A stretch of DNA of 57,257 nucleotides from an uncultured virus (IMG/VR IMGVR_UViG_3300045391_005857) (lineage: Duplodnaviria; Heunggongvirae; Uroviricota; Caudoviricetes): the IMG/VR virus record IMGVR_UViG_3300045391_005857. One strand, 5' to 3'. Shown piece after piece: positions 16,135 through 57,257 of this stretch (position 1 is its first letter; every line of letters begins with the position of its first letter). The notes beneath the pieces are model-generated. The model was not told where the DNA came from. It saw only the letters and a program-made list of their open reading frames with translations, and searched no databases. Made by a program: the position numbers and the translations under genes.

Positions 16135-16175
16135 CCGGGCTGTGAACGATTCACTTGCCACGGAGGGCCGCAGCC

Positions 16176-18388: not shown

Positions 18389-18389
18389 C

Positions 18390-29548: not shown

Positions 29549-29595
29549 GTCGGCCGGGCCGACTGATGCTTTCTCATACCAGCAGGGAGGCTGCG

Positions 29596-31248: not shown

Positions 31249-31999
31249 GCCCAAGCTCTCCATCCTGGTGATTACGTTGCAGTCACGAGCCGAGAAGCTC
31301 GCCAATCTGCTGGCTTGTTTGCGACCCCAGCTTACGGACGACGTCGAACTTTTGCAATGTTGCGACAACGGCGAGCGACAGTCCGGGGCCAAGCGGAACG
31401 AGCTGCTGTTCAAGGCCACCGGCGACTACGTCGCCTTCATCGACGATGACGACCTGGTGGCGGACGATTACGTGCAGCGGATGCTGGCAGAGATCGAGCA
31501 TAAGCCAGACGTGATTACCTTCCGCCTGCGGATGAGCCGGGACGGCAAGTTCGTCGAGCAAAAGTTCGGGCTGCACGAGCAGGACGGCCCCCAGTGGGGT
31601 ACGGATATCCGGATGACCGCTAACCACATCTGCGCCTGGCGTCGCGAGCTGGCCACGATGATGCGGTTCCCGGACTGGCTGGGCTACGGCGACGATCAGT
31701 TCTGGTACAAGCCGCTGATTGCCGCCGGCGTCGCGAAGACTGAGCGACACATCGATCACATCATGTACTACTACACGTTCTCCCGGGCGGCGACGGCGAA
31801 TCAAACCAAGGAGCGTGTGCGTGTTGCCGACAAGTGGGTTGGCAGCGGTATCCAGGCGTACTGGATGGCTGATCGGATCGTTATGGACCGACACTCCGCG
31901 CAGTTCGGTCGCGTTCGGCGGGTCTATGACGCCGGCGGACGCGAATTTGATATCGATGCAGCGGAGTTGAAACCGATCGCACTGTGCTATCTCAAGTAG
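31247..31999 (+). CDS. GT2-family glycosyltransferase
   Basis: KLSILV, GAKRN, ATGDYVAFIDDDD. Confidence 0.88.
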   Translation: MPKLSILVITLQSRAEKLANLLACLRPQLTDDVELLQCCDNGERQSGAKRNELLFKATGDYVAFIDDDDLVADDYVQRMLAEIEHKPDVITFRLRMSRDGKFVEQKFGLHEQDGPQWGTDIRMTANHICAWRRELATMMRFPDWLGYGDDQFWYKPLIAAGVAKTERHIDHIMYYYTFSRAATANQTKERVRVADKWVGSGIQAYWMADRIVMDRHSAQFGRVRRVYDAGGREFDIDAAELKPIALCYLK

Positions 32000-32959
32000 C
32001 TACTTCTTGCTGTTCTGGATGTACTCGGTGACCCGGTTGACGTGCCCGATCTGACTGGGGTGCGTTACGATCTCCAGCAGCCGGCCCTTGCTCTTGGGCT
32101 TGTAGATGCTTTCGTGGGTCTTGCTGCACTGCTCCTTCTCGCCGCCGATCGCCAGCTCGCCGCGGCCCTTCAAGGGCACGCCGCAGGCGTGGCAGTGAAA
32201 GCGCGCTTGCTGCTCGAAGGCCGCCATCGGCTGATTCCACCAGCCCGGCGTAACCGCCAGGCCCGTGTCCGGATAATCGGGCTCCTCCTGGTGCAGCATC
32301 GCCATCGCGCCGGCGATCTCGCAGAAGTAGCCCCGCAGCTCGCCGCGGAAGACGCCGATCATCGCCGACCAGTATTGGTTGACGTCACACTCGCCGATCA
32401 GCTTCCAGCGATTCTCCTCGGTGTTGGGGACACCGCCGGGCAAGACCTCCATGTCCTGCATGGCGTAGTACGGCGAAGCGTGCCGCGAATCGTCGGTGAC
32501 GCCGACGGGCCGGGCTTCGGGCCAGTCGCGGCGGAACTCTTCCAACGCCTCCTGGTCGAGGTGGACGTTGATGTTGGAGACGTGCGGGTTGAACGTCTCC
32601 CGCGCGATCGCGCCGTTGCCAAAGAGCTTGTTGCACCACAGCCCCCGTCGCTCGAACGGGATATACCGCTGCATGATCTTGCAGAGCTGCTCGAACTGCG
32701 GGTGCAACGCGGGGTTGCCGCCGAACACACCCACGACGCCGAAATAGTCCTGCAAGCTCTGGCAGGCGACTTCAAATTGTTCGACCGTGATTCGGCCCGG
32801 CTTGCCGCCGAGGTTCGAGGCCTGCGTGCAGCCGAAGCAAGCCTTATCGCAGCTCCGCGTCACCCAGATTTGTAGGACTCCCTGGCGCCACACTGTCGGG
32901 CGGCGATCCCTCGGGGACTTCATCGTGGGGGGTAGGGGCAGCATTGGCATCCTTTCCAT
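32000..32959 (-). CDS. radical SAM protein
   Basis: VTRSCDKACFGC (CxxxCxxC), FGGNPALHP, C-terminal Cys; start uncertain. Confidence 0.85.
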   Translation of the reverse strand: MERMPMLPLPPTMKSPRDRRPTVWRQGVLQIWVTRSCDKACFGCTQASNLGGKPGRITVEQFEVACQSLQDYFGVVGVFGGNPALHPQFEQLCKIMQRYIPFERRGLWCNKLFGNGAIARETFNPHVSNINVHLDQEALEEFRRDWPEARPVGVTDDSRHASPYYAMQDMEVLPGGVPNTEENRWKLIGECDVNQYWSAMIGVFRGELRGYFCEIAGAMAMLHQEEPDYPDTGLAVTPGWWNQPMAAFEQQARFHCHACGVPLKGRGELAIGGEKEQCSKTHESIYKPKSKGRLLEIVTHPSQIGHVNRVTEYIQNSKK

Positions 32960-34109
32960 AATTGAGCCGGAGTCGTTCGATCTCGGCCGCCAACTCGCGG
33001 CCGCGACGCCGGTAATCATAGAACGCCTGGGCCCTCTTCGCGAAGTCCTCTTGTTTGTCCTTCTCGTAAGTGTCGGCCGTATGGCGGATCAGCTTGGAGA
33101 GGGCGTGCAGCGGGATGTCGCTCGATATCCGGATCAAATTGCCCTCGATCTCCGGCAAAACGTCGATCTCCGGCAGGTTCGTGATGACGCGGCAGCCGCA
33201 GGCCGTGGCCTCGATTAGCTTGCGGAGGGCATAGCCCAGCCGCGAAGCGGTGCAGATCGCAACCTTGTAGTGCGTCAGCGCGAACAGGTAGTTGTCGGTG
33301 TCGGGGCCGTTGGCGGCATAGCCCGGGAACGACCGCGTTTCCACCGGCAGGTACTGGGCGTTAGCGTACAGTCGATTGCGGAGCGGGTAATAATCGCGGG
33401 CCGCGTTGCCCGAGAGCAGGCACGTGCGGTCGCGGGGGTTGGCGCCGTAAGGCGGGATCTTCGCCGGATCGACCGAGTGCCAGGTGCGGATGAGGTGCTC
33501 GCGGCGGATGTACGGCGCTAGCGCACAGACAATGTCCGGGTGGTAGTAAGCAATCCAGCCGTGATAGCCCATCTGCTCGGCGGCGTCGCGATGGTAGTGC
33601 GGCTCCTGGTGGGCGTCTTTGCAGATCGTGAGCTTGAAAATGTCCGGGCGATGCGACAGGTGGTGGTAGTTCTGAAAGCCGGCGTCTTTGTTCAGGCAGG
33701 TGCTGGAGCCCGGGTCCCACTCGCGCTTGTCTTGCACGATGAGCGTCCGCACCGGGGCGGCGAGGTTGAGGATTGTCGGCACGTCGCGTTGATCGTCCGG
33801 ATAGCCAGGTCCCCATAGGCGATAGCCGGCCAATGCTAAGCCTTCTTGCATCTGCCAGCCTTCGTCGGTCATGTGCTGGGCGAAGCTGTGTAGCCCCAGC
33901 ATGTGTAAGCCGCCCTCCTGCGGAATGTATTCCGGCGGATCGAGCCGCACCACCGGCGCCGTCGCTCCGCGACGTCGGCGGAGCACACGTCGCTTCAATA
34001 GTTTACGGGCTGTTGCCTGGGTACGGTTGCGGATGGACTTTCGTTGTACCGGGCCGGGCGTCGCGGCCCGTCGGATCGTGTTGACGACACGACGGTTTTG
34101 ATTGGTCAT
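32844..34109 (-). CDS. GT-B-like glycosyltransferase
   Basis: YPLR, Y..AL..YKVAICT, RKLIEATACGCRVIT. Confidence 0.7.
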   Translation of the reverse strand: MTNQNRRVVNTIRRAATPGPVQRKSIRNRTQATARKLLKRRVLRRRRGATAPVVRLDPPEYIPQEGGLHMLGLHSFAQHMTDEGWQMQEGLALAGYRLWGPGYPDDQRDVPTILNLAAPVRTLIVQDKREWDPGSSTCLNKDAGFQNYHHLSHRPDIFKLTICKDAHQEPHYHRDAAEQMGYHGWIAYYHPDIVCALAPYIRREHLIRTWHSVDPAKIPPYGANPRDRTCLLSGNAARDYYPLRNRLYANAQYLPVETRSFPGYAANGPDTDNYLFALTHYKVAICTASRLGYALRKLIEATACGCRVITNLPEIDVLPEIEGNLIRISSDIPLHALSKLIRHTADTYEKDKQEDFAKRAQAFYDYRRRGRELAAEIERLRLNYGKDANAAPTPHDEVPEGSPPDSVAPGSPTNLGDAELR

Positions 34110-34663
34110 TTTGGTTTGATGAAGAACCAGCTCTCGATCTCTTCCGCCGATGTCTTGTACGGCGTGAGCTGATGTTGTTCAGCGAAAGCGATAACGGCCG
34201 GGCGGACTTCGTCGGCCCACTCCCATTCGTTGAGATCATGGCCCGACATTACGCCGCCAGGTCGAACCCTGGTCCACCAGCTTTGCATATCTTCTTCGAC
34301 GAAGCGGCGGATGTGATTACCGTCGATATGTACGAAATCCAGCGCGGCGGGCTCGATCTGGGCGGCTGCCTCGGTCGAGAGCATTCGCCAGAGTCGCACA
34401 CGGTTGGCGAAAGGCGCTAGCGTATCGACGGCTGCCTGATAGTCTGCATCGCGATCGCCGTAAGCTACCATGTCGTGATAGCTGGGCAGCTTTCGCCAGG
34501 GGTCCACGCAGATCAGCTCGCCGGGCCAGGCATTAAGAAACAGCGCGGCGTACTCGCCGCGATGGGTGCCAACCTCGACCGCTGTGCCGGTGAGGTCCCG
34601 TGTCCGCAGGAAACTACCAAAATCGACACGGGTCGGTAGTTCGGGGTGAGCGACAATGTCCAT
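34106..34663 (-). CDS. class I SAM methyltransferase (Methyltransf_24-like)
   Basis: VEVGTHRG, VDPW, DFVHIDGNH, PGGVMSGHD. Confidence 0.9.
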   Translation of the reverse strand: MDIVAHPELPTRVDFGSFLRTRDLTGTAVEVGTHRGEYAALFLNAWPGELICVDPWRKLPSYHDMVAYGDRDADYQAAVDTLAPFANRVRLWRMLSTEAAAQIEPAALDFVHIDGNHIRRFVEEDMQSWWTRVRPGGVMSGHDLNEWEWADEVRPAVIAFAEQHQLTPYKTSAEEIESWFFIKPK

Positions 34664-37172: not shown

Positions 37173-39515
37173 ATGTCCCAAGCGTTCTCGCTGCTGGGTC
37201 CGATGAACACTCGGCCGTACGCGATCGGCGAACGGCCGGGCGGCTCGTACATCCCCACGATCCCACTGCTCTCGGGGCAAACTGGGTGGGATAGTCTGAC
37301 TCCGTATTACACGTCGCGTGCGCTGGATACGCATCTTGAACATTTCGGGCATGGCGGCCCGCGGGTGACGGATCACCCGCTGACGAAGAAGGCCAATGGC
37401 TTGATGACGTTGACGCGCGGTCTGTCCAAGCCCGGCGTGCCGCCGATCGATCCCAAGGTCTACGCCCGGCTCTTCCCGAAAATCGATCTCAGCAAGTCCC
37501 GCTCGACCGGCCCTGGTTTCTGGGATCGCGCCAAGGCAGTAGCTGCCCATCCGGCGACGCCCGGTGTTGTAGGTGCTGGCGCTGTCGGCGGTAGTGGGCT
37601 TGCTATGTTTGGCGGTGCTTTAGCTGCAGGTAACCCTGTCGCGGCGCCACAAGAAGGTGTTGGTGAAGGTAGCGGCCTGCCCAAGGGGACGCCGGATACG
37701 ACATCCGGCGAGACCGGCCCAATCCCAGGCCCGGGCCTCCCGAAGATCGAACTGCCGGAGAGTTTGCAGAAGCTGGTCGGCGGTGTTGGCGATCCTGGAC
37801 AGATCGCTCAGTTCGCCGGCAAGAACTGGGGAGCGTTGCTCGGTGGCGGGATGGGTCTCGCCGGTCTCGCTTATTTGCTCAACAAGCGTCGGCAGGCCAA
37901 GCAGCGGGAGAAGACGTTAGCGTCGATGCCATTCGTGATGAAGTCGGCGGAGGACGTCCGCGTCTTTGCGTTGGAGCATCCGCTCGTGGCCGGCTTTCTG
38001 CGACGCTGCGGGGAAGCCAAGCTCAACGATCGACAAATCATTACCAAGATTGCGGCTGCCTGCCGCGTCGATCCGTCGATTAAAGCAGCCTTCGACGCGG
38101 CCGGTACGTTGTTTGATCAAAGACAGCCGCCACAGTCGCCGAACCCGATGATTGCCAAAGCACCGCAGCCGAATCTAGCTGGCGACGAGCTGGCTAAGGC
38201 GCGCGCAAATGTGCCCCCGCCTGGTTCTCCGCAGGGCGGCAAGTTGGTGGGCTCACCCAGTCTGCCCGATAAGCCAATGAATGGTCCCAGCTTGTACGGC
38301 CATTACGCCGACCAGGCGTTCAATCCAAATCACGATTGGAGCCAGGACCCCACCGACGCACCGGGCGACGCAGCGTTGCGAACCGGTGCCCGTGTCAGCG
38401 GCGCTGTCGGTGGCGCTGCCGGCCTGGCCGCTGGCGGCATTGCAGCGACCCCGCTGGCGACGCTGCCGGCAACATCAGCACTCGGTGCGGCCGGCGGTGC
38501 TGCAGCACGTACTGCCGGCGGGCTGGCTGGTCAAGTTGCTCTCATCGGAGGCGCTCAAGCTATCGGACAAGGTATTCATGATTCACTCGGCGGTAATCAG
38601 CACATGGATATGGGCATGGGCGAAATGCCGCCAGCGGTCGACGGCAACGGGCAGCCGATCACTACGCCCGAGCAAGCTAAGCAGCACGTAGCTGAGACGG
38701 GGCAGAAGATACAGGAGGCCGCGGCTCAAAATCCCGAAATCAAAAATACTCTGGCTGAGGCGAATAAAACGCAGCAAGCGCCGCCCAGTATGACGGCCGG
38801 CGCCGCACAGAATTTATTAAACGAGCCGCACATCAAAGCCATGGGGGCAACATTGCAGGATGCGTGGCAGCACGTCTCCGCAATGCCGTGGCAACAGCAA
38901 GCACCGCTCTGGCTCGGCCTGGGGCTCGGGACGTACGGATTGCTGCATGGTCTATTCGGCAAAGAAGGCGGGATCGGCGATTGGCTGATGGGGCTGGTAG
39001 GTCTTGGCACTGCGGCTGGTATGGCAGCCCGCGGCGGTGCGTTTGGCCAAGGGGCCCAGCAAGCCGTACATGGTGCTGTTGGCGGAATCGGTAACTGGTT
39101 AAACGGAATGTTGCAAGGCAAAGCTGGTCCGCAGCAAGCTGGTGGGCAACCAGCAGCGACACTGTCGGAGGCTCCCAAGGTGGAGCCGAGCGCTATGCAA
39201 GGCGTCATGGCGAATCATAGCTGGCTGACACCGCATATCGGCGGCGGGGATGATCCGCACGCACTCGATAAAGGCGATCAAGCCGCGATTCTTAAAGCAT
39301 TTGCCGCTGGACAAATCAAACCAGAGCAAATGCAGGCTCTCGTACAAGAGCCTGCGCTCAGGCCGCTTATCCAGCACGGCGTCGATAGCGAGCTAGATAC
39401 GCAACGGAGCGGGCCAATAGCGCGGATGACCAACTGGGGCAGAGCGCTTACTCGCGAGCAGGCTTTACAGCACGCGGAGCCGTGGCAGCGGCAGCTTTAT
39501 GACTGGACGCGCTAA
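37173..39515 (+). CDS. Gly/Ala-rich 780-aa protein with hydrophobic helices, possible ejection/internal virion protein
   Basis: GxxxG-rich segments; KKAN, KSAE and KIAA motifs; GGAGG RBS. Confidence 0.7.
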   Translation: MSQAFSLLGPMNTRPYAIGERPGGSYIPTIPLLSGQTGWDSLTPYYTSRALDTHLEHFGHGGPRVTDHPLTKKANGLMTLTRGLSKPGVPPIDPKVYARLFPKIDLSKSRSTGPGFWDRAKAVAAHPATPGVVGAGAVGGSGLAMFGGALAAGNPVAAPQEGVGEGSGLPKGTPDTTSGETGPIPGPGLPKIELPESLQKLVGGVGDPGQIAQFAGKNWGALLGGGMGLAGLAYLLNKRRQAKQREKTLASMPFVMKSAEDVRVFALEHPLVAGFLRRCGEAKLNDRQIITKIAAACRVDPSIKAAFDAAGTLFDQRQPPQSPNPMIAKAPQPNLAGDELAKARANVPPPGSPQGGKLVGSPSLPDKPMNGPSLYGHYADQAFNPNHDWSQDPTDAPGDAALRTGARVSGAVGGAAGLAAGGIAATPLATLPATSALGAAGGAAARTAGGLAGQVALIGGAQAIGQGIHDSLGGNQHMDMGMGEMPPAVDGNGQPITTPEQAKQHVAETGQKIQEAAAQNPEIKNTLAEANKTQQAPPSMTAGAAQNLLNEPHIKAMGATLQDAWQHVSAMPWQQQAPLWLGLGLGTYGLLHGLFGKEGGIGDWLMGLVGLGTAAGMAARGGAFGQGAQQAVHGAVGGIGNWLNGMLQGKAGPQQAGGQPAATLSEAPKVEPSAMQGVMANHSWLTPHIGGGDDPHALDKGDQAAILKAFAAGQIKPEQMQALVQEPALRPLIQHGVDSELDTQRSGPIARMTNWGRALTREQALQHAEPWQRQLYDWTR

Positions 39516-40015: not shown

Positions 40016-40076
40016 AGTTTGACGAAGCTGCTGCGTGGAGACGATACCACGGATTACTCCAAGGAGGGATGTAACG

Positions 40077-40394
40077 ATGCAGAGCAGCGACTGGCTCACA
40101 ATTGCCTTGTGGGGCTTGGGTGCACTGGGCACCGTGGTCGCAACTCTGATGGGTGTGCTGGCCTATTTCCTCAAGCGCCTCATCGATCAACTCGACAGCA
40201 CACGCCGCCAGGTGTTTTCGCTGCGAGATGAACTTCGCTCTATGCACGGGAAGTTCAAATTGTTCAAGATTGAGGTGCGCTTGCTGCTAACCAAGGCCGG
40301 CGTCAACACTCGCGAGATCGAAGAACTCGTCAAGCTGGCTGACGACGACGAGATCGCTGGTCCCTTGGACGACGTTGAGCTGCTGCCACCATGA
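40077..40394 (+). CDS. single-TM plus coiled-coil protein
   Basis: AAGGAGG RBS, N-terminal TM. Confidence 0.7.
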   Translation: MQSSDWLTIALWGLGALGTVVATLMGVLAYFLKRLIDQLDSTRRQVFSLRDELRSMHGKFKLFKIEVRLLLTKAGVNTREIEELVKLADDDEIAGPLDDVELLPP

Positions 40395-43300
40395 ACGATA
40401 TCTACTATTACGACGTTGGTGTAACGGTCGGCGCGATCTATCAGGCGTTACTGCGACGACCATCGGTCGAGAAGATTGCGGCCACGGCCGAACTGTCCTA
40501 CGGTCTGAAGGGACAGCTCTACAAATCGAGTGCCGGCTGGATTTTGCTGACGGTGCCGAATCATCTCGGCCGCGGGGCTTTCGATGCCCTCGGGGAGACC
40601 GGCATCGAGCTGCCGCTTAACAGCAAGGGCATCTACAACGCGCATATCTCGGTCATGCGACCCGAGGAGGTCGAGACGATCCCCGGCGGGGCCGGCGCGA
40701 TCAGCGAGCGGGGGCATGACTTCGCCTACACGCTAGGTCCGGTACGATCGGTGAAGCCGCACGGCTGGAGCGACGTCGCGAAGGTCTGGTACATCGAAGT
40801 TCACAGCCCTCAACTAGAACAACTGCGGAGAAGCTATGGGTTATCGTCACGACCGCGCGAAAACAAACATCGCTTCCACATCACGATCGCTATAAGAAAG
40901 TCGCAGGTCCTCCGGGAGAATGACAAGTCCAAAGCGGCTTCGTTCATTCACTACCCGGAGGAGATGTTTCGCGGTCGACTGGCGACAGCGGGACCTCCGC
41001 AGCTCGCCGAAGATGCTTTCCCCTGTTGTGATGCGGAGGCGGAGACTGGCGAGACGATCAAGACGGGGGAGGAAGCGATCGCGGCGCCAAAGGGTGAACT
41101 GTGCCCGTATTGTCAAGCGCGTTTAGAGTACAACCCCGACGATCAGACGTGCAACCATTGCGGCAAAGAGTATCCGCCGGAGAAGCTGGCGGCAGAGTCT
41201 GCCGGGCTCCATCCGGCAGTTGCACAGACAGTGCAACAGCATGGACAGATAGGTCCTGGCTTCCCCTACCAAAGCACAATCGGCCACGGGAAAGTTGGTC
41301 CCTTGATGCATTCGGACGCCGGGCTGGATTTTTTGCACCACGTACATGGCGATGCCGCCCGCGCTGGTTTGGGGCAGTCGTTACGCCGTAGCGGTTACGA
41401 CCCGACCAGCGAGCAGGCAACTAACGTCGGGCAGCAATTGTTCAATCAGCGATGGCCAACACAATTACCGCCGGTGCAATCAGGCAATGTTAGTCAGGCC
41501 GCTGGTGTCGGTGTGCAATTAGCCCCCGGTAGTTTTGAGCAGTCTTTGTACGGCATGCCTGCACACGGCATACTTAATCACGAGTTGGAGCATGTGCGAC
41601 AGGATCGCGTACCTGGCGGCGGGGCCGGGGTAGAGGTTGGGCCTAGTCTCGGTGATTTGGTATTCGCGAACGAGACGGCGAGACAGGTTACCGGGCAGCC
41701 TACGCAGCATCAGGTGACTTTTCCGAGTGGAAAAGAACACGACATCAACTGGATGACGGATCAAGCTAAGCAGCACGGGTATTTCGGCGGGAAGTCAATG
41801 GATGACTTATTGGCGACGCCGGCCGGTCAGCAGTGGTTACAGCAGGCGATTGGCGAGAAGGGGGCAGGTCTGCTGCCGTCGGTACACCTCCAGCCGCAAC
41901 AGCAACGCGTCTCGGACGAGATCAAACACCAACGCGTCCGTAAGCTCCTCTACCACTCCCTCGGCTCAGGCAAGACGCTGTCGTCTATCGCGGCCGCGGA
42001 ATCGGCTGGCGAGCCCTACCTGGCGACTGTGCCCGCGGCGCTGCGGCCGAACTTCAAGAACGAGCAAGCCCGCTGGACCGATCAACAAACGCCATCCGAG
42101 GTCGAGAGCTATTCCGCCCTCGCCAAGGGCGTCCCCCAGCAACACTTCGGCACCGCGATCTTCGACGAAGCCCAGCGACTGCGGAATGAGAACTCGCTAC
42201 AGACACAGCACGCTAAAGAAGTTGCGCGGCAGACGCCCAATCTGCTCATGCTCTCCGGCACTCCGATCGTGAACGGGCCAGGCGACTTCGCCCCGCTGGC
42301 CGAGATGCTCACGGGCAAGCCGCAGGACTCCAAGACGTTTGAGCAAACCTACGTCGGTCAGAAGACCGTGCGGCCTAGTCTGATGGCCCGCTTCCGCGGC
42401 GTGCAGCCGGCGAAGGTGCCGGTACTTAGAAACCAAGACCAGCTCAAAAAGCTGCTCGCCGGCCACGTCGATTACCACGCGCCGGCGAAGCCCGACGTCG
42501 AGCAAGTCGAGGAGCGTTATGAGACGCCCATGTCGGGCGAGCAGACGAAACTCTACCAGGCTTTCTGGAATCAGTTGCCGTGGGTGCTCCGCTGGAAGCT
42601 GCAGCACGAGTTCCCGCTCTCCAAGCAGGAGATCGGTAATCTATCCTCGTTCCTGGCCGGCCCTCGTCAGGTTTCCTTGTCAACGCTGCCCTTTATGCGC
42701 GGCCGTCGCGACCCGTACAAAGCCTTCCAACAATCACCCAAGCTCCAGCGGGCGATGCAGCTCGCTGAAGAGACGCTCGGCAGCAATCCCAACGCCAAGA
42801 TCGTCGCGTTCTCAAATTTCCTCGAAGCGGGCCTGCAGCCGTACGCAGCGGCGTTGGCTGCTAAGAAAATCCCCTATGCCATCTTTCATGGCGGCATGAA
42901 TGATGCCGAGCGCAAGCGGGCCGTCGCCGACTACAACGCTAATCGTATCCGGGCACTCCTCATCGCTCCGGCCGGCGCCGAGGGCATCTCCCTCAAGCAT
43001 ACCAACGCGCTGCAGCTCCTCGACCCGCACTGGAACGAAGCCCGCCTCGATCAGGCGATCGGCCGCGGCATCCGCTTCGATTCGCACACCGATCTACCGC
43101 CCGAGCAGCGGAAGGTGCGGGTGCAACGGTTCTTGTCGACGCTGCCGCCAGGCGTGCTATCGCGGCTGTGGCGGTACATCATTCAAACCAAGCCCAACAC
43201 CGAAAAAAGCAGCCCGGGTGTCGACCTGTACCTGGAGCACCGGGCCCGGAAGAAACAGGAGCTGAATAACCAGTTCCTCAATCTGCTCAAGGAGATCGGA

Positions 43301-43576
43301 TCACCCAAAGCCGCGGCCGCGACTGGCAGTTACTACCTGGACGCTGTTCAGCAAACGCCAGTCAGCTATGATTCATCCCAAGGTGCATTGCAGAACCTGC
43401 TAATGCACCTGGGCAAGGTCAGGGCTCGTGGCGATCGGGCGATCACAGAAGCCGAGAACTGGGACAGCTTGCAGGACGCCGCGGACCCAAATCGGTCACT
43501 TCTCAGGTTGCAGAGGCAACTAGCAGGCGAACCACCACTCGTCTCCCACCCTCTGGATAGATTGCTGCATGCTTAA
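40391..43576 (+). CDS. multidomain 2H phosphoesterase / Zn ribbon / HExxH / SNF2-family helicase
   Basis: HISV and HITI; CPYC..CNHC; HELEH; HSLGSGKT, DEAQ, SGTP, EGISL, QAIGRGIRFDSH. Confidence 0.88.
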   Translation: MNDIYYYDVGVTVGAIYQALLRRPSVEKIAATAELSYGLKGQLYKSSAGWILLTVPNHLGRGAFDALGETGIELPLNSKGIYNAHISVMRPEEVETIPGGAGAISERGHDFAYTLGPVRSVKPHGWSDVAKVWYIEVHSPQLEQLRRSYGLSSRPRENKHRFHITIAIRKSQVLRENDKSKAASFIHYPEEMFRGRLATAGPPQLAEDAFPCCDAEAETGETIKTGEEAIAAPKGELCPYCQARLEYNPDDQTCNHCGKEYPPEKLAAESAGLHPAVAQTVQQHGQIGPGFPYQSTIGHGKVGPLMHSDAGLDFLHHVHGDAARAGLGQSLRRSGYDPTSEQATNVGQQLFNQRWPTQLPPVQSGNVSQAAGVGVQLAPGSFEQSLYGMPAHGILNHELEHVRQDRVPGGGAGVEVGPSLGDLVFANETARQVTGQPTQHQVTFPSGKEHDINWMTDQAKQHGYFGGKSMDDLLATPAGQQWLQQAIGEKGAGLLPSVHLQPQQQRVSDEIKHQRVRKLLYHSLGSGKTLSSIAAAESAGEPYLATVPAALRPNFKNEQARWTDQQTPSEVESYSALAKGVPQQHFGTAIFDEAQRLRNENSLQTQHAKEVARQTPNLLMLSGTPIVNGPGDFAPLAEMLTGKPQDSKTFEQTYVGQKTVRPSLMARFRGVQPAKVPVLRNQDQLKKLLAGHVDYHAPAKPDVEQVEERYETPMSGEQTKLYQAFWNQLPWVLRWKLQHEFPLSKQEIGNLSSFLAGPRQVSLSTLPFMRGRRDPYKAFQQSPKLQRAMQLAEETLGSNPNAKIVAFSNFLEAGLQPYAAALAAKKIPYAIFHGGMNDAERKRAVADYNANRIRALLIAPAGAEGISLKHTNALQLLDPHWNEARLDQAIGRGIRFDSHTDLPPEQRKVRVQRFLSTLPPGVLSRLWRYIIQTKPNTEKSSPGVDLYLEHRARKKQELNNQFLNLLKEIGSPKAAAATGSYYLDAVQQTPVSYDSSQGALQNLLMHLGKVRARGDRAITEAENWDSLQDAADPNRSLLRLQRQLAGEPPLVSHPLDRLLHA
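42421..42433 (+). repeat. dispersed 13-mer, copy 5
   Basis: Exact copy inside the helicase CDS (VLRN). Confidence 0.9.
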
Positions 43577-43945: not shown

Positions 43946-44227
43946 GTGACAATGTCTGGTTACTGGACTATGCTACGCAGCGGGCGGTTTAGTTCCGCCC
44001 GCGTTCGTGCCCGCCGGAAAAAGTATGCTGTCGGTCCTCGCGACCGACGGCGGGCTGCCCGCGACACACGAGGTTACACGCGGCGATGGGCTCAGAAGCA
44101 ACTACGCTTAGCCAACAAGCGACACCAGGACGCGATCGCCGCCTGGCTCTATGGTCCCTTCTCTTCGGGCCCGCCGCCGCGTCCGATCGAGAGCTGGGCC
44201 TGGCTGAACCGGTTGAAGACGGCGTAA
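43946..44227 (+). CDS. basic hypothetical protein
   Basis: Fills gap; overlaps the next ORF. Confidence 0.45.
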   Translation: MTMSGYWTMLRSGRFSSARVRARRKKYAVGPRDRRRAARDTRGYTRRWAQKQLRLANKRHQDAIAAWLYGPFSSGPPPRPIESWAWLNRLKTA

Positions 44228-45408
44228 AGCTCGCCGACTGGCAACAGGTGCCCGATCTCGTCCGCGAACGGTACAAAGAAGCGGCCGACGTCAAGAAGGT
44301 AGTCAGCCGGCTGCTCAAGCATCTGCCCAAAGAGATGCCCGACTATGGGCACGTCTTTTGGAACCCGAAGACGAAAGAGCTGTGGGCCGTGCTCAGCGAC
44401 AGCGAGCCGCAGTCCACCCATCAGCGCTGGCACAACGCGCTCAAAGCCGTCAACGGCGTCAGTGCCGTGCGGACAGAGGCCGAGTATGGTCCACATCGCG
44501 ACCCTGATTGGATTCGCGTCAAGAAAGCCGCCGCGCTCGAATATCTCAACAAGCCGTTCCAGATGGCCGGCGCGCTCACCGGCGGGCCGAGCCCAATGAC
44601 CAATGCGATCGTCGGCGGCCTCTTGGCCGGCGGAGCCGGTTATGCCGGCGGGGCGATCGCCGAACAACTGTTACCGCGGCGCTACGTGGAGCGTGGCCGC
44701 TTGCGAAAGGTACTTGGCTTGCTCGGCCTGGGGCTAGGCACTTTACCGGGGCTGTGGGAGGGCTCGGTGAATTCGCTGAATTCCAACCAGGCCGGCAAGC
44801 CTTTAGGTTGGCGAACGGCGATCACGCCGACGAACAACGTACCGCTCAATCCCCATACTCAGTTCCAGAGCAATCTATTACGGGGTGGACACTACAAAGG
44901 TGGCGAGGCGATCGACTGGGACACGCTCGACGCGGAGCTGGAGGGTTGCCCGCTGGCTCCGGAGTTCTTTTTGAAAGCGGCTGCCGGTTTCGCCGCCTCG
45001 CTCGGCCCTGCCGATTACAACCTGCGGTCGGTGCCGATGGACGCGTTCAATCAAGCGATCTGGAACGACGTCAGCAAAGGCATCAGCGCTCGCAACAACC
45101 CCTACGGCACCAAAGATCCGTGGGGCGACAACTCACAATCACTGCACACGCCACCGCCGCTGGGCGCAGCTACGGCGGGGCTCGTGGCCGGTATCGGCGC
45201 TCAATACGGGAATCCGTCGCTTCTTTCTCCTCAGCACTTCATCAGTGGTCTAGCGGCGGCCGGCGTCGATCTCGTAACAGCTCGCTTGGCAGGGGGCGTG
45301 CTCGGTGTGCTCGGCGGGCTCACGCCCGCTGCGCAAGAACAACTCCAAAATGCAGGGCTCTGGTCGGGTTTGATTCGCGGCGTAGCTAGCTCGGTGCTGG
45401 GCGTCTAG
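44086..45408 (+). CDS. Gly/Ala-rich probable virion protein
   Basis: KLAD, KKAAA and LKAAA motifs; true start may lie downstream. Confidence 0.65.
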   Translation: MGSEATTLSQQATPGRDRRLALWSLLFGPAAASDRELGLAEPVEDGVKLADWQQVPDLVRERYKEAADVKKVVSRLLKHLPKEMPDYGHVFWNPKTKELWAVLSDSEPQSTHQRWHNALKAVNGVSAVRTEAEYGPHRDPDWIRVKKAAALEYLNKPFQMAGALTGGPSPMTNAIVGGLLAGGAGYAGGAIAEQLLPRRYVERGRLRKVLGLLGLGLGTLPGLWEGSVNSLNSNQAGKPLGWRTAITPTNNVPLNPHTQFQSNLLRGGHYKGGEAIDWDTLDAELEGCPLAPEFFLKAAAGFAASLGPADYNLRSVPMDAFNQAIWNDVSKGISARNNPYGTKDPWGDNSQSLHTPPPLGAATAGLVAGIGAQYGNPSLLSPQHFISGLAAAGVDLVTARLAGGVLGVLGGLTPAAQEQLQNAGLWSGLIRGVASSVLGV

Positions 45409-48960: not shown

Positions 48961-49977
48961 ATGATGCCGGTTTCGTTGATTCCCTGGCCGGACGAGGCGG
49001 TCGAGCTGTCGCCGGATAAAGTCATTGACATGTACGTCAATGGCTTCGCGGGAGCTTTCCATTCGCCCGAAGAGGCGGAGAAGCTCGCCGACTCGATGCA
49101 GTGGAAGAACTTCGGCGACGCGGCGGTCGAGTTCGGGCTCGAAGACAGCGGAGCTGGCAAGCTCTCACTGCCCTTCATGTCGCTGCTCAAGTTAGCACCG
49201 ACATGCTTCCCCGGGCCGGCTCAAACGACGGGCGACTGCGCTTCTCGCGGTACAGCCAACGCCTGTCAGGTTACGCTGGGTGTCGAGGTGGATCTTGGCA
49301 TCCCTGATCCCGACACCGGCGTGGTCGAGGGTTTTCCGGATATCCCGGAGCCTTCCCAGGGCATCATTGCCTCCGAGCCGATCTATGGTTATCGGGGGCA
49401 TTCGGGGCAGGGAGCCAACGTCCAGCGGCTGGCCCAGTTCATGACGACGGCTGGCGGCATCTTGCTCCGCAAGCCGTATCCGTCGCTCGGCATCGACCTC
49501 ACAAAATACGACAGCAGCATCGGCGCCCGCTGGGGTGGTCGCGGCACGCCGGCCAACGTCTGCGTGGAAGGCAAGCTGCACCAGGTCCGCACCTGCACGG
49601 CGATCAAATCGACGGAGCAAGCTCGCGACGCGCTGGCCAACGGTTACGGCATCAACGTCGGCTCGAACTACGGCTTCACTGACACCCGCAACGAAGACGG
49701 CGTCTCGAAACGATCGCGGCCGTGGAACCATGCCATGTCGTGGATCGCTGTCGACGACACGCCGGAGACGCGCAAAAAGTACAACGGGATGTTGTTCCTC
49801 GTCATGAACTCGTGGGCTCGCTTCAACCGCGGCCCACTGGCCAATCATCAGCCCGAGGGTTCGTTCTGGATCGTCGAGTCCGATGCCCGCGGGATGATAG
49901 CACAGGGCGGTGCCGTGGCGTTCTCAAATACTAACGGTTTCCCTGGGCGTGATCTCCCCAACTATTTGGTGATCTGA
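48961..49977 (+). CDS. divergent papain-like (C1) cysteine peptidase
   Basis: QTTGDCAS, WNHAM, MNSW, GSFWI. Confidence 0.75.
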   Translation: MMPVSLIPWPDEAVELSPDKVIDMYVNGFAGAFHSPEEAEKLADSMQWKNFGDAAVEFGLEDSGAGKLSLPFMSLLKLAPTCFPGPAQTTGDCASRGTANACQVTLGVEVDLGIPDPDTGVVEGFPDIPEPSQGIIASEPIYGYRGHSGQGANVQRLAQFMTTAGGILLRKPYPSLGIDLTKYDSSIGARWGGRGTPANVCVEGKLHQVRTCTAIKSTEQARDALANGYGINVGSNYGFTDTRNEDGVSKRSRPWNHAMSWIAVDDTPETRKKYNGMLFLVMNSWARFNRGPLANHQPEGSFWIVESDARGMIAQGGAVAFSNTNGFPGRDLPNYLVI

Positions 49978-52437: not shown

Positions 52438-53224
52438 TCCGCAGATCATGAAGAAGCAAGAGCTGCTCCAGTCGCTCTTGCATTTGGGCTTAGCAGGCGC
52501 GGGCATCGGTGCCGGCATTCGTGCCGGCACCGGGCTGCACCAGCTGCTCATCGCCGGCAAACCTAAGCCGGCCACGACGCTCCCTACGCCGGACACGGTC
52601 CCTGTGCCGGTGCTCCGGCCCGATCCGACCGAGATGAGCGAGCCGGATGACGGCGTGGAGGGCGAGCCGTCGATCGCCAAGATGGCGGAGAAGCTGGCGG
52701 CCGAGCAATGGCTGCCGCAGCCGATCGCCGATGCGATGCCGAATCTTTCCAACTCGGGGCACCCTTTTGCTTCCTGGCAAGGCATGCCGGCCGCGGTGGG
52801 TGTCGGCACGCTGGGCGTCGCCGGCGGCTACTCGCTCATGGACTGGTTGGCCAAGCATCGTCGCAAGGCCGAGCAGAAGGCCGACGTCGACGACGCCCGC
52901 GACGAGTTCCGCAGCGCCCTGGCCAATGAATACAACACGGCCATGTCGGCTAAACAGGCTAACGAGCTGGACGCTGCCTTCGACGAGTGGCAGAAGCAAG
53001 CCAATGGTCGGCAGCAACTTGCAGACATCGGCAACCTCGCCGGCGGGATGTATGGTGCAGCCGCGCTGGCTCTCGGCGGCGGCACGGCTTACATGACGTA
53101 TAAAGCGATGAAGGAACGCAGTGCGCAGAAGCTCTTGCAGAAAGCAATCGCCGCCCGCGCGCGACAGCGATCCACGCCGCAACCGATCTACGCCGTGCCG
53201 ACCAATGACCTTGCGACTGTGTAA
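52313..53224 (+). CDS. Gly/Ala-rich probable virion protein
   Basis: KQAL, KMAEKLAA and KQAN x2 motifs; three hydrophobic helices. Confidence 0.65.
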   Translation: MQSQSLSPPPSLPSPSRLAPPRSLACHTPSSVGQTTVKQALDPQIMKKQELLQSLLHLGLAGAGIGAGIRAGTGLHQLLIAGKPKPATTLPTPDTVPVPVLRPDPTEMSEPDDGVEGEPSIAKMAEKLAAEQWLPQPIADAMPNLSNSGHPFASWQGMPAAVGVGTLGVAGGYSLMDWLAKHRRKAEQKADVDDARDEFRSALANEYNTAMSAKQANELDAAFDEWQKQANGRQQLADIGNLAGGMYGAAALALGGGTAYMTYKAMKERSAQKLLQKAIAARARQRSTPQPIYAVPTNDLATV

Positions 53225-56200
53225 TGACCAGTATTCTCGATCCACCGGGCTCTTCCCCCGCACCTGCTAAGCCCAAACTGCGCCGCTTCGACGATACCCA
53301 GTCCACCCGGTCGGCGATTTTCGACAATGTGCTCCACGCCGCGAAGTCGATCGAGCCTATCACCAATCCGCGGCATACGCTCTCGCTGACCAATCTGAAA
53401 TACACCGGTCCCGAAGGTTACTCGCTGGCCGATCAGAAGAAGGCCATTCTCTCCAACCAGTCGTTGCATCGTCGGCTGCAGGGCACCTGGCAGCTTACTG
53501 ATACTGCGAGCGGTAAGCCGCTCGCCTCGCGTACAGCTACGATTGCGCACGTGCCCTGGATGACCGATCGCGGGACGTTCATCTACAACGGTACCGAATA
53601 TACGATGGCCAACCAATTTCGGTTGCTGCCGGGCGTCTACACCCGCCGCAAGAGCAACGGCGAGCTGGAGGCCCACGTCAATGTTGCTAAAGGTCTGGGC
53701 CACCGGCTGCATCTCGATCCGGAGAGCGGTGTCTTCCACGCGCAGTTCGGCCAGGCCAAGATCCCGCTGTACCCGCTCTTAAAGACGCTCGGCATCCACG
53801 ACTCCAAGCTGCGGGAGGTGTGGGGCAACGACCTCACGGCCGCCAACGCCGCCAAGGATGACCCGCAGGCGATGCGGAAGCTGTACACCAAGCTGCTGCG
53901 GTACGGCACCGACACCGACGACATGTCGAAGCGGGCGGCGATCGCTAAGGTCATCTCGCAAATGGAGCTTGATCCGGCCGTCACGAAACGCACGCTCGGC
54001 CAGTCGTACAAGAATGTTTCTGCGGACGTTATCCTGGCGGCTACGAAGAAGCTGTTGGACATCAACCGCGGCGAGGCAGAGGAGGACGATCGCGATCACC
54101 TGGCTTACCAGCGGGTGCTCGGTCCCGAGGATATGTTCGCCGAGGCGATGCACCGCGCTCGCGACGTCGGTCGCAAGTTGCTATGGAAGGCCGCGGTGAA
54201 GAACACACTCGATCATGTGCCGGCCGGAGCCTACACGCCAGCGATCAACGATACATTGCTCAACAGCGGCCTGGGCATGCCGCTAGAAGAAGTCAATACC
54301 GGGGAGATTTTCGATCAGCTCACACGTATCACGCGGATGGGGCGAGGCGGTATCCCATCGCTCGATGCGGTGCCCGATGAGTCGCGCGCGGTGCATCCCT
54401 CGCAATACGGCTTTGTGGATTTTTTACGTACGCCAGAATCTTCCAAAGTAGGCGTCGATCTTCGACTTGCGCGCTCGGCCCTCAAGGGAGATGACGGCCG
54501 AGTCTATACTCCGGTACGCGACGTGCGGCGTGGCGCAATAGCCCCCAAGTCGCCCCAGGAACTAGCCGACAGCGTGCTGGCATTCCCGGGCGAAATGGAG
54601 AGTGGTCGCCCATACGTCCACGCGTTTGTGCGGGGCAAACAAAGAGTCATCCCGCGACAGCAGGTGGAATACTCTTTGCCATCAGGGGAAGATGTTTTTA
54701 GTCCCCTTGGCAATCTGATTCCGATGAAGTCGGCTGTCAAAGGACAGCGATCCGTTATGGCGGCGCGCATGGTGACGCAGGCCTTGCCGCTCCGTGATCC
54801 AGAAGCTCCGCTAGTACAAAGTGGGGTACCTAATCAGAAGGACCACTCTTATGAACACGAATATGGTACTCGCCTTGGCGCTATTCGACATTCTGGTTCT
54901 GAGCCTGGTCGCGTGCTTTCTGTTGCGCCTGACAGTATCGTCGTGGAGAGCAGCGGGGGTCGGCAGACGATCGAGCTGCACCAGCATCTCCCCTTCAACC
55001 GCAAGACGTTCTTCCACCAAGAGCCGGTCGTCCACCCAGGCGACACCGTCCAGCCGGGACAACTCCTCGCGCGCTCGAATTTTACAGATTCCAACGGTGC
55101 CGCAGCCCTCGGTAAAAACGCCCGCGTGGCCTATATCCCATGGGGTGGGATGAACTTCGAAGATGCCAATGTGGTGTCGCGGTCGTACGCCGACCGTATG
55201 ACCTCGGAGCACATGTATCAGCACGGCGTCGAATGGGATGACAACACCAAGCGGGGTAAGAGCGCGTTCCAGGCGCTCTTCCCCGCTAAATATCCCAAGC
55301 AGGTCCTGGCGAACTTCGATCAGCACGGCGTCATTCAGCCGGGCACCGAGGTTAAGCAAGGTTCGCCGCTTATTCTGGTCGCCCGTCAACGCGAGCCCCG
55401 CAAAGGCGTCGTGCACCGCTCGCAGGGTCCCTCGTTTTCCGACGAGAGCGTGACGTGGGATCACCACGCGCCGGGCGTCGTCACCGACGTCGTGCATACC
55501 GGCAAAGGCGTGCAGGTCGTGGTGAAGACGGCACACGGCCTGGAGGTCGGCGACAAGCTCAGCGGGCGGTACGGTGACAAAGGCGTGGTGGCTGCGATCG
55601 TCGACGATCACGAGATGCCGCAGGATGCGAGCGGGCAGCCGTTCGAGGTGCTGCTCAATCCCAGCGGTATCTCGACCCGTACGAACCCCGCCCAGATTTT
55701 CGAGGCTGGCCTCGGCAAGATTGCCGCCGCGCATGGCAAACCGTACAAGGTGCAAGATTTCTCCGGCACCGACGATCTCAACGAGTACGTTACGCAGGAG
55801 CTAAATAAACACGGGCTCCAGGCTCGCGAAACGATTACCGATCCTCGTACCGGCCGGCAGATCCCCGACATCTATACAGGTAATCGCTGGCTGATGAAGT
55901 TGCACCACACGGCCGAGTCGAAGTATCAGGGTCGCGGACTGGGCGCTTACACGGCGGACGAAACGCCGGCTAAGGGCGGTACCGAAGGCGCCAAGCGGGT
56001 CGGCATGCTCGAACTCAACTCCCTGCTCTCGCACGGAGCCACCAATGTCGTCCGCGACATCGGACTCGTCCGCGGCCAGGCCAATCCGCAGTACTGGTCG
56101 CAGTTCATGGCCGGCTTCAAACCACCCACGCCTAAAGTACCGCACGTCTACGAGAAGTTCGTCAACCAGCTCAAGGCCTCCGGCATCAACGTGGTCCGCG

Positions 56201-57257
56201 ACAACAACCGGATCAATATCATGGCCTTGCGGGATAGCGACCTGGAACATCTGACCGGCGACCGCGAGCTGCAGAACGTCGAGACGGTCGACTGGCGAGA
56301 CTTCCTCAAGCCGATCGACGGCGGTCTGTTCGATCCTCGGCTCACCGGCGGCCCGGGCGGTAATCGCTGGTCGCACATCACGCTGCAGCACCCGCTACCA
56401 AACCCGGTAATGGAAGAGCCCATCCGGCGGTTGCTCAATCTGACGACGCCCCAATTCCACGACGTGCTCAGCGGCAAAGAACAGTTGCAAGGCCGTACCG
56501 GCCCCGAGGCGATCTCCGCTGCTTTGAATTCGATCGATCTCGGCAAAGAACTGGAACGAGCCCGCATCGAGTGCCACAGCAACCGCCGCACGGCTCGCGA
56601 TGCGGCGATCCGTCGCTTGAAGTACCTGAAATCGGCACAAGAATCGAACACGCATCCGAGGGAGTGGATGTTATCGAAGGTCCCCGTCTTGCCGCCGGCC
56701 TTTCGCCCGGTGTCAACTATCGGACCGAAGAAGCTGCCGCTCGTAGCGGACCCCAACTATCTCTACAAGGAGGTGTTCGACGCCAACCAGGCGTGGAAGG
56801 ATGTCGCGAAGGATATCGGCGACGCTGGTGACGAGCAGTTGGCGACCTACAAAGCATTCAAGGCTGTGACCGGGTTGGGCGATCCGATCCAGCCGAAGAA
56901 CCAAGAACGCCGCGTAAGAGGAATCCTCGAACATGTCTTCGGCTCTTCTCCCAAAACAGGTGCTGTACAATATCGATTACTGGGAAGACCAGTTGATCTC
57001 GTCGGTCGTGCGGTTATTGCACCGGACCCTGACCTGGATATGGACCAAGTTGGCGTCCCCGAGCATCGAGCTTGGGAAATCTATAAACCCTTCATTGTCC
57101 GACGACTCGTCCGCAGCGGCATGCCCCGAATTCAAGCCGCTCGGGCCGCTGAAGAGAGACACGAGGATGCTCGGAAAGCCCTCCTCCAAGAGATGGAAGC
57201 GCGGCCGGTTATCATCAACCGTGCCCCGACGCTCCACCGGTACGGGGTGATGGCGGC
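53224..57257 (+). CDS. rpoBC: fused beta-beta' DNA-directed RNA polymerase (3' partial; not in ORF track)
   Basis: Stop-free frame from ATG 53224: PWMTDRGTFIYNG, DDRDHL, VHPSQYG..RTPE, MNFEDA, GDKLSGRYGDKG, MKLHH, GAKRVG, then GLFDPRLTG, VPVLPPAFRP, LLGRPVD, NRAPTLH. Confidence 0.95.
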   Translation, partial: MTSILDPPGSSPAPAKPKLRRFDDTQSTRSAIFDNVLHAAKSIEPITNPRHTLSLTNLKYTGPEGYSLADQKKAILSNQSLHRRLQGTWQLTDTASGKPLASRTATIAHVPWMTDRGTFIYNGTEYTMANQFRLLPGVYTRRKSNGELEAHVNVAKGLGHRLHLDPESGVFHAQFGQAKIPLYPLLKTLGIHDSKLREVWGNDLTAANAAKDDPQAMRKLYTKLLRYGTDTDDMSKRAAIAKVISQMELDPAVTKRTLGQSYKNVSADVILAATKKLLDINRGEAEEDDRDHLAYQRVLGPEDMFAEAMHRARDVGRKLLWKAAVKNTLDHVPAGAYTPAINDTLLNSGLGMPLEEVNTGEIFDQLTRITRMGRGGIPSLDAVPDESRAVHPSQYGFVDFLRTPESSKVGVDLRLARSALKGDDGRVYTPVRDVRRGAIAPKSPQELADSVLAFPGEMESGRPYVHAFVRGKQRVIPRQQVEYSLPSGEDVFSPLGNLIPMKSAVKGQRSVMAARMVTQALPLRDPEAPLVQSGVPNQKDHSYEHEYGTRLGAIRHSGSEPGRVLSVAPDSIVVESSGGRQTIELHQHLPFNRKTFFHQEPVVHPGDTVQPGQLLARSNFTDSNGAAALGKNARVAYIPWGGMNFEDANVVSRSYADRMTSEHMYQHGVEWDDNTKRGKSAFQALFPAKYPKQVLANFDQHGVIQPGTEVKQGSPLILVARQREPRKGVVHRSQGPSFSDESVTWDHHAPGVVTDVVHTGKGVQVVVKTAHGLEVGDKLSGRYGDKGVVAAIVDDHEMPQDASGQPFEVLLNPSGISTRTNPAQIFEAGLGKIAAAHGKPYKVQDFSGTDDLNEYVTQELNKHGLQARETITDPRTGRQIPDIYTGNRWLMKLHHTAESKYQGRGLGAYTADETPAKGGTEGAKRVGMLELNSLLSHGATNVVRDIGLVRGQANPQYWSQFMAGFKPPTPKVPHVYEKFVNQLKASGINVVRDNNRINIMALRDSDLEHLTGDRELQNVETVDWRDFLKPIDGGLFDPRLTGGPGGNRWSHITLQHPLPNPVMEEPIRRLLNLTTPQFHDVLSGKEQLQGRTGPEAISAALNSIDLGKELERARIECHSNRRTARDAAIRRLKYLKSAQESNTHPREWMLSKVPVLPPAFRPVSTIGPKKLPLVADPNYLYKEVFDANQAWKDVAKDIGDAGDEQLATYKAFKAVTGLGDPIQPKNQERRVRGILEHVFGSSPKTGAVQYRLLGRPVDLVGRAVIAPDPDLDMDQVGVPEHRAWEIYKPFIVRRLVRSGMPRIQAARAAEERHEDARKALLQEMEARPVIINRAPTLHRYGVMA

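Follow-up and report, generated by a model that had tools for sequence, protein, structure and literature searches.

We have identified, in an uncultured tailed phage, a large protein in which several unrelated enzyme modules are joined to an SNF2-family ATPase core, and whose relatives carry a short tag, [E]-K-x-A-[A/D/E], at module starts. The gene is an intact open reading frame (ORF) at 40391..43576 (+), encoding 1061 amino acids (aa), in a stretch of 57,257 nucleotides (nt) from the virus record IMGVR_UViG_3300045391_005857, which in its full length is called the window here. In this protein family the tag is enriched outside the SNF2 core and avoided within it. Our overall reading, to which we give a probability of roughly 0.5, is that the protein is polyvalent, with modules accreted onto an SNF2 core linked to RNA polymerase (RNAP), and that the tags are processing sites. 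The source is a large uncultured tailed phage of the about 200 kb class.

Module layout and relatives of the protein

From N- to C-terminus the order is leader helix, 2H phosphoesterase, zinc (Zn) ribbon, HExxH+Glu domain, SNF2 ATPase and tail. The features of the ORF are as follows.

40391..43576 (+): whole ORF, polyvalent protein, 1061 aa; start codon overlapping the stop codon of the preceding ORF (ATGA)
40391..40468 (+): N-terminal leader, aa 1-26, with a helix predicted at 3-21
40469..40483 (+): junction tag 1, EKIAA, aa 27-31, inside a segment (23-35) with a predicted local distance difference test (pLDDT) score <50
40505..40915 (+): 2H phosphoesterase domain, aa ~39-175, with HISV at aa 85 (nt 40643) and HITI at aa 163 (nt 40877)
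40931..40942 (+): junction tag 2, KAAS, aa 181-184, in the disordered stretch 176-234
41093..41176 (+): four-Cys Zn ribbon CPYC...CNHC, aa ~235-262, with CPYC at aa 238 (nt 41102) and CNHC at aa 254; weak Pfam double-Zn-ribbon match
41180..41194 (+): junction tag 3, EKLAA, aa 264-268, at the end of the aa 1-270 model
41327..41854 (+): HExxH domain, aa ~313-488, with HELEH at aa 397 (nt 41579); H397, E398, H401 and E415 invariant; no Pfam family
41855..41872 (+): junction tag 4, EKGAGL, aa 489-494 (EKGAG from aa 489), immediately N-terminal to the SNF2 core; last block of the HExxH model
41873..43285 (+): SNF2-family ATPase core, aa 495-965, with GSGKT at aa 525 and DEAQ at aa 592
43307..43321 (+): junction tag 5, KAAAA, aa 973-977, preceding the tail module
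43322..43573 (+): C-terminal tail module, aa 978-1061, which recurs in P0002 and in a separate 275-aa protein, P0229

Every motif that an initial annotation had listed for this ORF was recovered at its place by a sequence check, the EKxA coordinates given there being those of the K codon and not of the E codon. The same annotation proposed a fusion of unlike enzymes, which is borne out by the 2H, Zn ribbon, HExxH and SNF2 assignments; at least two disparate biochemical activities are thus united in one chain. Domain parsing by structure prediction, which it suggested as a check, separated the leader, the 2H domain, the Zn-ribbon unit and the HExxH domain in two models. Three Pfam families score above their curated cut-offs in the ORF (2H-SAK, SNF2-rel_dom and Helicase_C), and, save for the fold of the HExxH domain, we regard the domain identities as established.

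A protein search gave 130 matches to the ORF at E<=0.001. Among the 120 of these that were listed, the SNF2 core is common (41-69% identity over about 46% of the query), and it is joined by varying N- and C-terminal accretions that include 2H-SAK, InPase, SET, LigD_N, DNA ligase, C39 and C70 peptidases, GNAT, zeta-toxin-like kinases, NUDIX and inteins. An alignment-based scan found 203 relatives on IMG/VR viral contigs of up to 226 kb, where a single-protein scan had given none. Among 185,579 species genomes, relatives occurred on just two small contigs of metagenome-assembled genomes, one binned as Planctomycetota. The SNF2-core family is essentially viral. The closest complete relative, L003 (226 kb, CheckV 100%), encodes a 2977-aa polyvalent protein at L003:2528-11461 with the same 2H start, a GerD-like segment, LigD_N, a Zn ribbon and a C-terminal SNF2 core.

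Polyvalent proteins of phages and conjugative elements were defined by Iyer, Burroughs, Anand, de Souza and Aravind (2017; PMC5512222). It is proposed there that such proteins are packaged and injected along with the DNA, that zincin-like peptidases process them, and that their 2H domains may destroy nucleotide second messengers (PMC5512222). The protein studied here is very probably a member of this class. Since packaging, injection and processing had been proposed before, the reading of the initial annotation, a virion-loaded and protease-processed bundle of anti-defence and DNA-remodelling enzymes, is essentially a published hypothesis. The class and the general packaging and processing hypothesis are therefore already known; what appears to be new is the family-wide module-start tag with its avoidance signature, an unclassified HExxH family, and the tie of this SNF2 family to a packaged multisubunit RNAP.

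The SNF2 call made initially is upheld by both Pfam lobes (PF00176, 42 bits; PF00271, 51.3 bits; each above cut-off) together with the Walker A motif GSGKT and DEAQ. In PHROGs, phrog_62 'DNA helicase' matches the ORF at 1.2e-41, and NCBIfam returned SNF2 matches below threshold and nothing else. The top sequence match to the core in the PDB is vaccinia NPH-I, at E values of 1.8e-13 for the single-sequence search and 1.4e-16 for the profile search.

The region of aa 1-270 was modelled with AlphaFold2 from 13 aligned homologs (mean pLDDT 67). The model shows the leader helix (3-21), disorder (23-35), a compact domain (39-175, pLDDT 80-94), a second disordered stretch (176-234) and a small Zn-ribbon unit. 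The compact domain matches 2H-SAK (PF22547) over aa 80-172 with 35.2 bits against a Pfam cut-off of 27, and it contains two H-x-[T/S] motifs whose H85 and H163 are invariant in the 13 sequences. Foldseek alone returned nothing significant for the partly disordered aa 1-270 model. Fold assignment was made by VIA re-scoring of the Foldseek candidates, and all 27 of the 27 top rows were 2H enzymes, with Z from 6.4 to 3.6. Acb1 of phage FBB1 (PDB 7t26) ranks first (Z 6.4, root-mean-square deviation 4.3, 109 aa aligned), followed by the phosphodiesterase of phage BCSR5 (Z 5.6) and the poxvirus phosphodiesterase of cyclic GMP-AMP (Z 5.3); CNPase, Usb1, ns2 of mouse hepatitis virus and LigT are also among the top rows. 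Because the Z values of other 2H enzymes lie within about 1, no specific kinship to Acb1 is claimed. The Pfam score, the invariant histidines and the VIA rows agree with the 2H domain first proposed for this region, and the modelled N-terminal domain is accordingly assigned a 2H fold. Most plausibly, the module removes nucleotide immune signals or processes RNA ends. Ahead of this domain, the leader pattern Y-x-x-G-x-A-x-x-L is kept among the 2H-first homologs, and K28 of EKIAA is conserved in at least 90% of the 13 aligned homologs. Downstream of it, KAAS sits within a conserved 'SKAASxIHxPE'.

The Zn ribbon is common to homolog P0003 and to the giant protein of L003. It is followed by EKLAA, whose K265 reaches at least 90% conservation in alignment A2, which has gaps at that column in some rows; among the homolog sequences inspected, 'PPEKLAA' occurs in P0003. 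The next region, aa 266-494, has 107 relatives at E<=1e-3 in a library of 1.84 billion proteins. H397, E398, H401 and E415 do not vary, either across 18 near-full-length relatives or within an alignment of 15 sequences, in keeping with the HExxH call of the initial annotation, and HExxH with a downstream invariant Glu is, at the level of sequence, a Glu-zincin signature. The model of the domain is confident (pLDDT 80.6; predicted template modelling score 0.81) and places HExxH on helix 92-104, with E116 opening helix 113-135 (model numbering). The helical C-terminal subdomain (aa ~410-488) is found alone in some relatives. Comparison of the model with the PDB by Foldseek gave no match at E<=0.001; a wide VIA comparison gave a best Z of 5.0, in noise-level rows, and M1/M61 gluzincins reached merely Z 3.4-3.5. 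A sequence-profile search of the PDB with the domain gave 0 matches, and a search of the ESM Atlas gave weak leads alone. Pfam assigned no family to 37 HExxH relatives, save for one 2H-SAK/DUF5661 protein. One of the 15 alignment members matches DUF6782, a putative metallopeptidase, at 2.9e-4, and the query itself matches 0 Pfam families in this region. We therefore treat the domain as a candidate metallopeptidase of an undescribed family, its fold unassigned.

The module-start tag

Within the query alone, KxA occurs at chance (6 seen, 5.1 expected, p = 0.41), and EKxA, a motif chosen post hoc, has 3 occurrences where 0.31 would be expected (p about 0.003). The initial annotation had described each domain of this protein as bracketed by KxA. 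A junction tag is real across the family, but the bracketing does not rise above chance within this one chain; as judged from the aligned sequences, the KxA signal is significant at the family level only.

The strongest signal lies at the N-terminal edge of the SNF2 core, where K-x-[AGS]-[ADEGSR]-[LIV] stands right before 'xPxVxLQPHQ' in 107 of 111 homologs, these being the proteins with at least 5 residues ahead of the projected core. Conservation at this edge begins at the K, and the upstream positions are variable. Outside the SNF2 core, the homologs contain 193 instances of K.A[ADE] where 90 would be expected (2.14x). Controls range from 0.5 to 1.3x (R.A[ADE] 0.95x, K.L[ADE] 1.13x, the reverse motif 1.29x), and the offset control K..A[ADE] is likewise raised, at 1.93x. 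The consensus of 142 de-duplicated instances is [E]-K-[A/T/Q]-A-[A/E/D]-[A/D]. On shuffling the tag stays with the module downstream of it, and each module has its own continuation: K-x-A-[ADE]-L-L-P(-x-V) for SNF2, K-x-A-[AE]-[DY]-A-P-G for LigD_N, E-K-x-A-A-D-x-E-L-S-Y for 2H, and K-x-[A/G]-[A/Q]-x-S-[YWF]-Y-L for the tail module, the last in all three contexts available (query, P0002 and P0229). The tag also follows optional N-terminal leaders: among proteins with long N-terminal extensions, it occurs within the first 40 aa in 31 of 86, compared with 9% of other segments.

The initial annotation had asked whether homologs swap domains at KxA, and they do so well above the random level. Breakpoints of pairwise alignments between homologs are tag-adjacent in 36-38% of cases, against 12-14% of random positions; for breakpoints with at least 10 supporting high-scoring segment pairs, 28 of 44 starts and 52 of 71 ends are tag-adjacent.

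The opposite holds inside the core. In 117 aligned SNF2 cores, K.A[ADE] was seen once against 25.2 expected (z -5.7; lowest shuffle 14), and the looser K.[AGS][ADEGS] 20 times against 102.6 expected. The null was built from 200 shuffles of residues within alignment columns, which respects conservation, and the controls R.A[ADE], K.L[ADE], E.A[ADE] and KA.[ADE] were at expectation. The tag also extends beyond this gene: in the other 67 ORFs of the window, K.A[ADE] was seen 29 times against 12.9 expected (2.2x, z 4.6), with controls at expectation. The exact string K-L-A-D occurs 4 times in other window ORFs (40035-40394, 44086-45408, 18291-19397 and 48961-49977), where a rough expectation is ~0.3, and K-L-A-A is present in the target ORF.

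We regard these family-wide statistics as established. They bear on the notion that the KxA pattern is a meaningless coincidence in an Ala-rich protein: the chance-level count in the query is what that notion predicts, and the 107 of 111 junctions, the breakpoint enrichment, the core depletion and the enrichment in other window ORFs contradict it, so that we consider it highly improbable.

The tags may be cleavage sites, a proposal that we rate a little short of even odds. It is suggested by four properties: the tags lie in disordered linkers (in the query, the two models show low confidence or disorder at four of the five, and KAAAA is outside the modelled regions); they are Lys- and orientation-specific; they are proteome-wide in the window; and they are avoided inside a folded domain. 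The alternative is that the protein stays intact and that the tags are uncleaved module-start elements, either a docking peptide for the capsid interior, the portal or RNAP, or a helix or linker cap inherited with the modules. About 20 homologs keep the tag with just 1-24 residues before the K, as in proteins starting M-K-K-V-A-E-L; pure inter-domain cleavage leaves this retention unexplained, and a docking or capping element fits it equally well. Conservation also runs past the tag into each module, SNF2 and LigD_N being examples, and N4 virion RNAP and ArdC/TraC1 polyvalent proteins are described as transferred unprocessed (PMC5512222). On the other side, a generic Ala-rich linker would not be expected to prefer Lys over Arg, or one orientation over the other. 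Arash Gp217 and the PA-SR01 helicase, relatives outside the clade, lack the tag, and the SNF2 fold therefore does not need it. Core avoidance (1 against 25) is predicted by a signal recognised in trans; a docking signal predicts the same. We consider an intact protein with such elements unlikely.

Several further observations, together with the chance-level KxA count in the query and the tags at extreme N-termini, weigh against processing at the tags. There are no cleavage products of tagged proteins on record. In 106 HExxH-domain proteins picked regardless of SNF2, the tag is raised 2.0x outside the domain with controls already at 1.4-1.6x, and the C-terminal flanks of the HExxH domain carry it in only 10 of 73 cases. 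In the 2977-aa protein of L003 it is not enriched overall (5 seen, 3.7 expected). The homologs on which the tag statistics rest are non-independent samples. Finally, no protease common to all tag-bearing phages was found among the trypsin-like, papain-like, C39 and in-cis HExxH candidates.

Candidate proteases were surveyed in locus counts that cover 80 of the 203 viral relatives. Close upstream of SNF2, 45 of 80 loci encode a trypsin-family serine protease with an N-terminal hydrophobic, signal-like segment (e.g. L010:8587-9429 and L035:9006-9872); the window has none. As a universal cutter the trypsin-like enzyme was rejected for the subgroup to which the window belongs, being absent from five of five RNAP-linked records, of which 3 have a completeness of at least 90%. 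The residue six positions before its catalytic Ser reads as Met or Leu, not Asp, and Lys specificity can therefore not be claimed for it. A papain-family C1 peptidase is encoded in the window (25013-25840, +), ~50% identical to genes near SNF2 in L004 and L005; it too was rejected as a common cutter, since it was not found in the same five records. C39 domains occur inside P0009, P0010 and the L004 protein. Of the head-protease families, Peptidase_S78 was not found in the five RNAP-linked records; Peptidase_S77 also went undetected there, which is uninformative, as the S77 control was silent everywhere. In giant phages, prohead proteases cut packaged proteins, including virion RNAP subunits (PMC10052503, PMC7411985).

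Two other origins of the tag were considered. A DNA-level recombination scar is unlikely, by inference, because the conserved element, 4-5 residues plus a free position, offers too little length for homologous recombination. A cryptic internal translation start was set aside.

Virion delivery and the link to RNA polymerase

Cultured relatives in the phage database are distant ones only. Gp217 of Salmonella phage Arash is homologous to the SNF2 core (32% identity over aa 494-970), and the gene order in Arash is portal, RNAP beta, RNAP beta', SNF2 (Gp217), structural genes and major capsid protein. In purified Arash particles Gp217 was detected with 100% coverage, 38 unique peptides and 1148 spectra, compared with 1210 spectra for Gp216 and 1333 for the major capsid protein (PMC10585845). 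Gp206 is reported to be the most abundant protein in those particles. The SNF2 gene stands within structural blocks in both Arash and PA-SR01.

The window itself carries a counterpart of Gp206:

53224..57255 (+): fused RNAP beta/beta'-like ORF, 3' open, 33% identity to Arash Gp206 over 1391 aa

Its domains are Rpb2 domains 2, 3 and 6 (beta) fused to the start of beta' (Rpb1 domain 2). In relatives such as L074 the remaining beta' is a separate gene a few kb downstream. In 13 of 80 loci SNF2 has an RNAP gene within 10 kb, directly upstream in several. Both this gene linkage and the presence of a distant homolog in virions are established. In our view the SNF2 module resembles a partner of the phage RNAP more closely than it does a generic DNA remodeller.

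The initial annotation also proposed virion loading, which particle detection of the distant homolog Gp217 favours indirectly; for the protein itself we infer packaging, and it is probably virion-delivered. A different view is that the protein is unpackaged, an intracellular early or middle protein whose SNF2 module acts with the phage RNAP or in replication and recombination, and whose extra domains work in the cytoplasm. Among the window ORFs that flank the target there is no recognisable capsid, portal or tail family, and for the SNF2 helicases of jumbo phages a role as cofactors of RNAP or of recombination has been suggested (PMC7824862). The Arash proteome is very inclusive, with 116 proteins called particle-associated (PMC10585845); some may be carry-over, and caution is due. 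Gp217 is, moreover, a bare 472-aa core from a distant relative, and the margin of NPH-I over SsoRad54 and ISWI in the profile search is small. These points count against virion delivery and the RNAP partnership. Set against the unpackaged view are the spectral counts of Gp217, which match the counts for the beta' subunit of the virion RNAP and for a structural protein encoded nearby, the position of the SNF2 gene inside the structural blocks of Arash and PA-SR01, and the modules and tags that window neighbours have in common with polyvalent proteins. We consider an unpackaged protein improbable.

One such neighbour is:

44086..45408 (+): ORF of 440 aa, with modules in common with polyvalent homologs P0013 and P0088

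K-x-A-[ADE] occurs in it at five positions, two of them overlapping (e.g. 'VKKAAALEYL'). It combines a shared N-terminal module with a Gly/Ala-rich, membrane-like C-terminal half and is syntenic in L003, L050 and L051. On the other side of the target, the ORF at 37173-39515 (+) encodes 780 aa that are Gly/Ala/Pro-rich with hydrophobic stretches, no family match and 'FVMKSAEDV' following a basic stretch; this product may act in ejection or on membranes. The ORF at 16155-17279 (+) has a weak reprolysin-like HExxH match and a PPC domain, and that at 18291-19397 (+) is TGase_elicitor-like. The region 29566-34663, mostly on the minus strand, contains a weak radical-SAM match (32000-33019), Methyltransf_24 (34106-34663), a PP-binding carrier-protein-like ORF (29566-29832) and unannotated ORFs, and could be a modification or biosynthetic cassette.

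Proposed mechanism and comparison with known systems

The conserved core of the protein is an SNF2-family ATPase whose gene is linked, in this phage lineage, to a multisubunit virion RNAP and which, in Arash, is co-packaged with it. Given this linkage and co-packaging, the most likely role of the core would be to support early transcription, or the handling of DNA, as soon as the genome has been injected, a role comparable to that of poxvirus NPH-I or bacterial RapA. Onto this core the 2H phosphoesterase, the Zn ribbon, the candidate Glu-zincin metallopeptidase and the small tail module have been accreted, the 2H module being a likely nucleotide-signal or RNA-end hydrolase. The tag [E]-K-x-A-[A/D/E] opens each module, moves along with it on shuffling, lies in disordered linkers and is selected against inside folded domains. 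As processing sites, the tags would let a protease free the leader and the modules, either in the capsid or after injection, with the cut probably at or beside the Lys.

A more far-reaching version joins all of these elements and is put forward only tentatively. In it, a lineage of RNAP-carrying phages of ~200 kb would use [E]-K-x-A-[A/D/E] as a cleavage code for packaged proteins; polyvalent proteins would then be true polyproteins, loaded in one piece and cut afterwards. The code would stand at every module start and after short leaders, and purifying selection would keep folded domains free of it. Cutting would set free a 2H hydrolase directed against signalling, a metallopeptidase and a cofactor of RNAP akin to NPH-I, and the protease would be Lys-directed, in the largest subclade perhaps the adjoining trypsin-family enzyme.

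Polyvalent proteins are regarded as one of the principal ways in which phages deliver counter-defence enzymes. The manner in which a single chain becomes several working enzymes has so far been a matter of guesses, and a conserved tag would offer a testable site grammar. If this far-reaching version is true, tailed double-stranded DNA phages would possess a polyprotein strategy with a defined site grammar, and with it a module-exchange standard for counter-defence enzymes. The tag would also allow modules to be parsed automatically in thousands of uncultured phage proteins, and would point to the protease.

Among individual systems, the anti-CBASS phosphodiesterase Acb1 of FBB1 (7t26) is alike in its 2H fold and two H-x-[T/S] motifs and is the top structural row. 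It differs in that sequence identity is ~11% and its Z is within about 1 of those of CNPase, Usb1, ns2 and LigT; the 2H domain described here is, in addition, embedded in a polyvalent protein. Processing of ejection proteins of the SPN3US/phiKZ type and the capsid-targeting leaders of T4 resemble the proposed scheme in their short consensus sites and leader removal. The sites of the phiKZ and T4 prohead proteases end in Glu (A/S/G-x-E and L/I-x-E), whereas the tag has an invariant Lys followed by x-Ala, and no homologous protease was found. Arash Gp217 shares a homologous SNF2 core, a gene beside the RNAP genes for Gp206 and Gp216, and presence in particles; unlike the present protein it is without leader, tags and accretions.

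Polyvalent proteins as a class are alike in carrying several unrelated enzymatic domains per phage polypeptide, with SNF2, 2H, zincin-like HExxH, InPase, GNAT and papain-like modules in shuffled orders. They differ in four respects. The SNF2 module here has no paired DNA methylase. The HExxH domain here matches no Pfam model. The K-x-A-[A/D/E] module-start tag is unmentioned in the main text of PMC5512222, where 'linker' occurs 0 times (the supplements lie outside this scope), and at the level of titles and abstracts we found no description of such a junction motif in the literature. Finally, the family described here is tied to a multisubunit virion RNAP.

Vaccinia NPH-I (D11; PDB 6rfl chain Y) is the closest solved sequence to the SNF2 core, the match being confined to about 76-85 residues of the C-terminal lobe. 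NPH-I is a virion-packaged SNF2-family ATPase of the early-transcription complex and works with a packaged multisubunit RNAP. A packaged SNF2 ATPase beside a packaged multisubunit RNAP in a tailed phage would parallel poxvirus early transcription and would suggest a general requirement.

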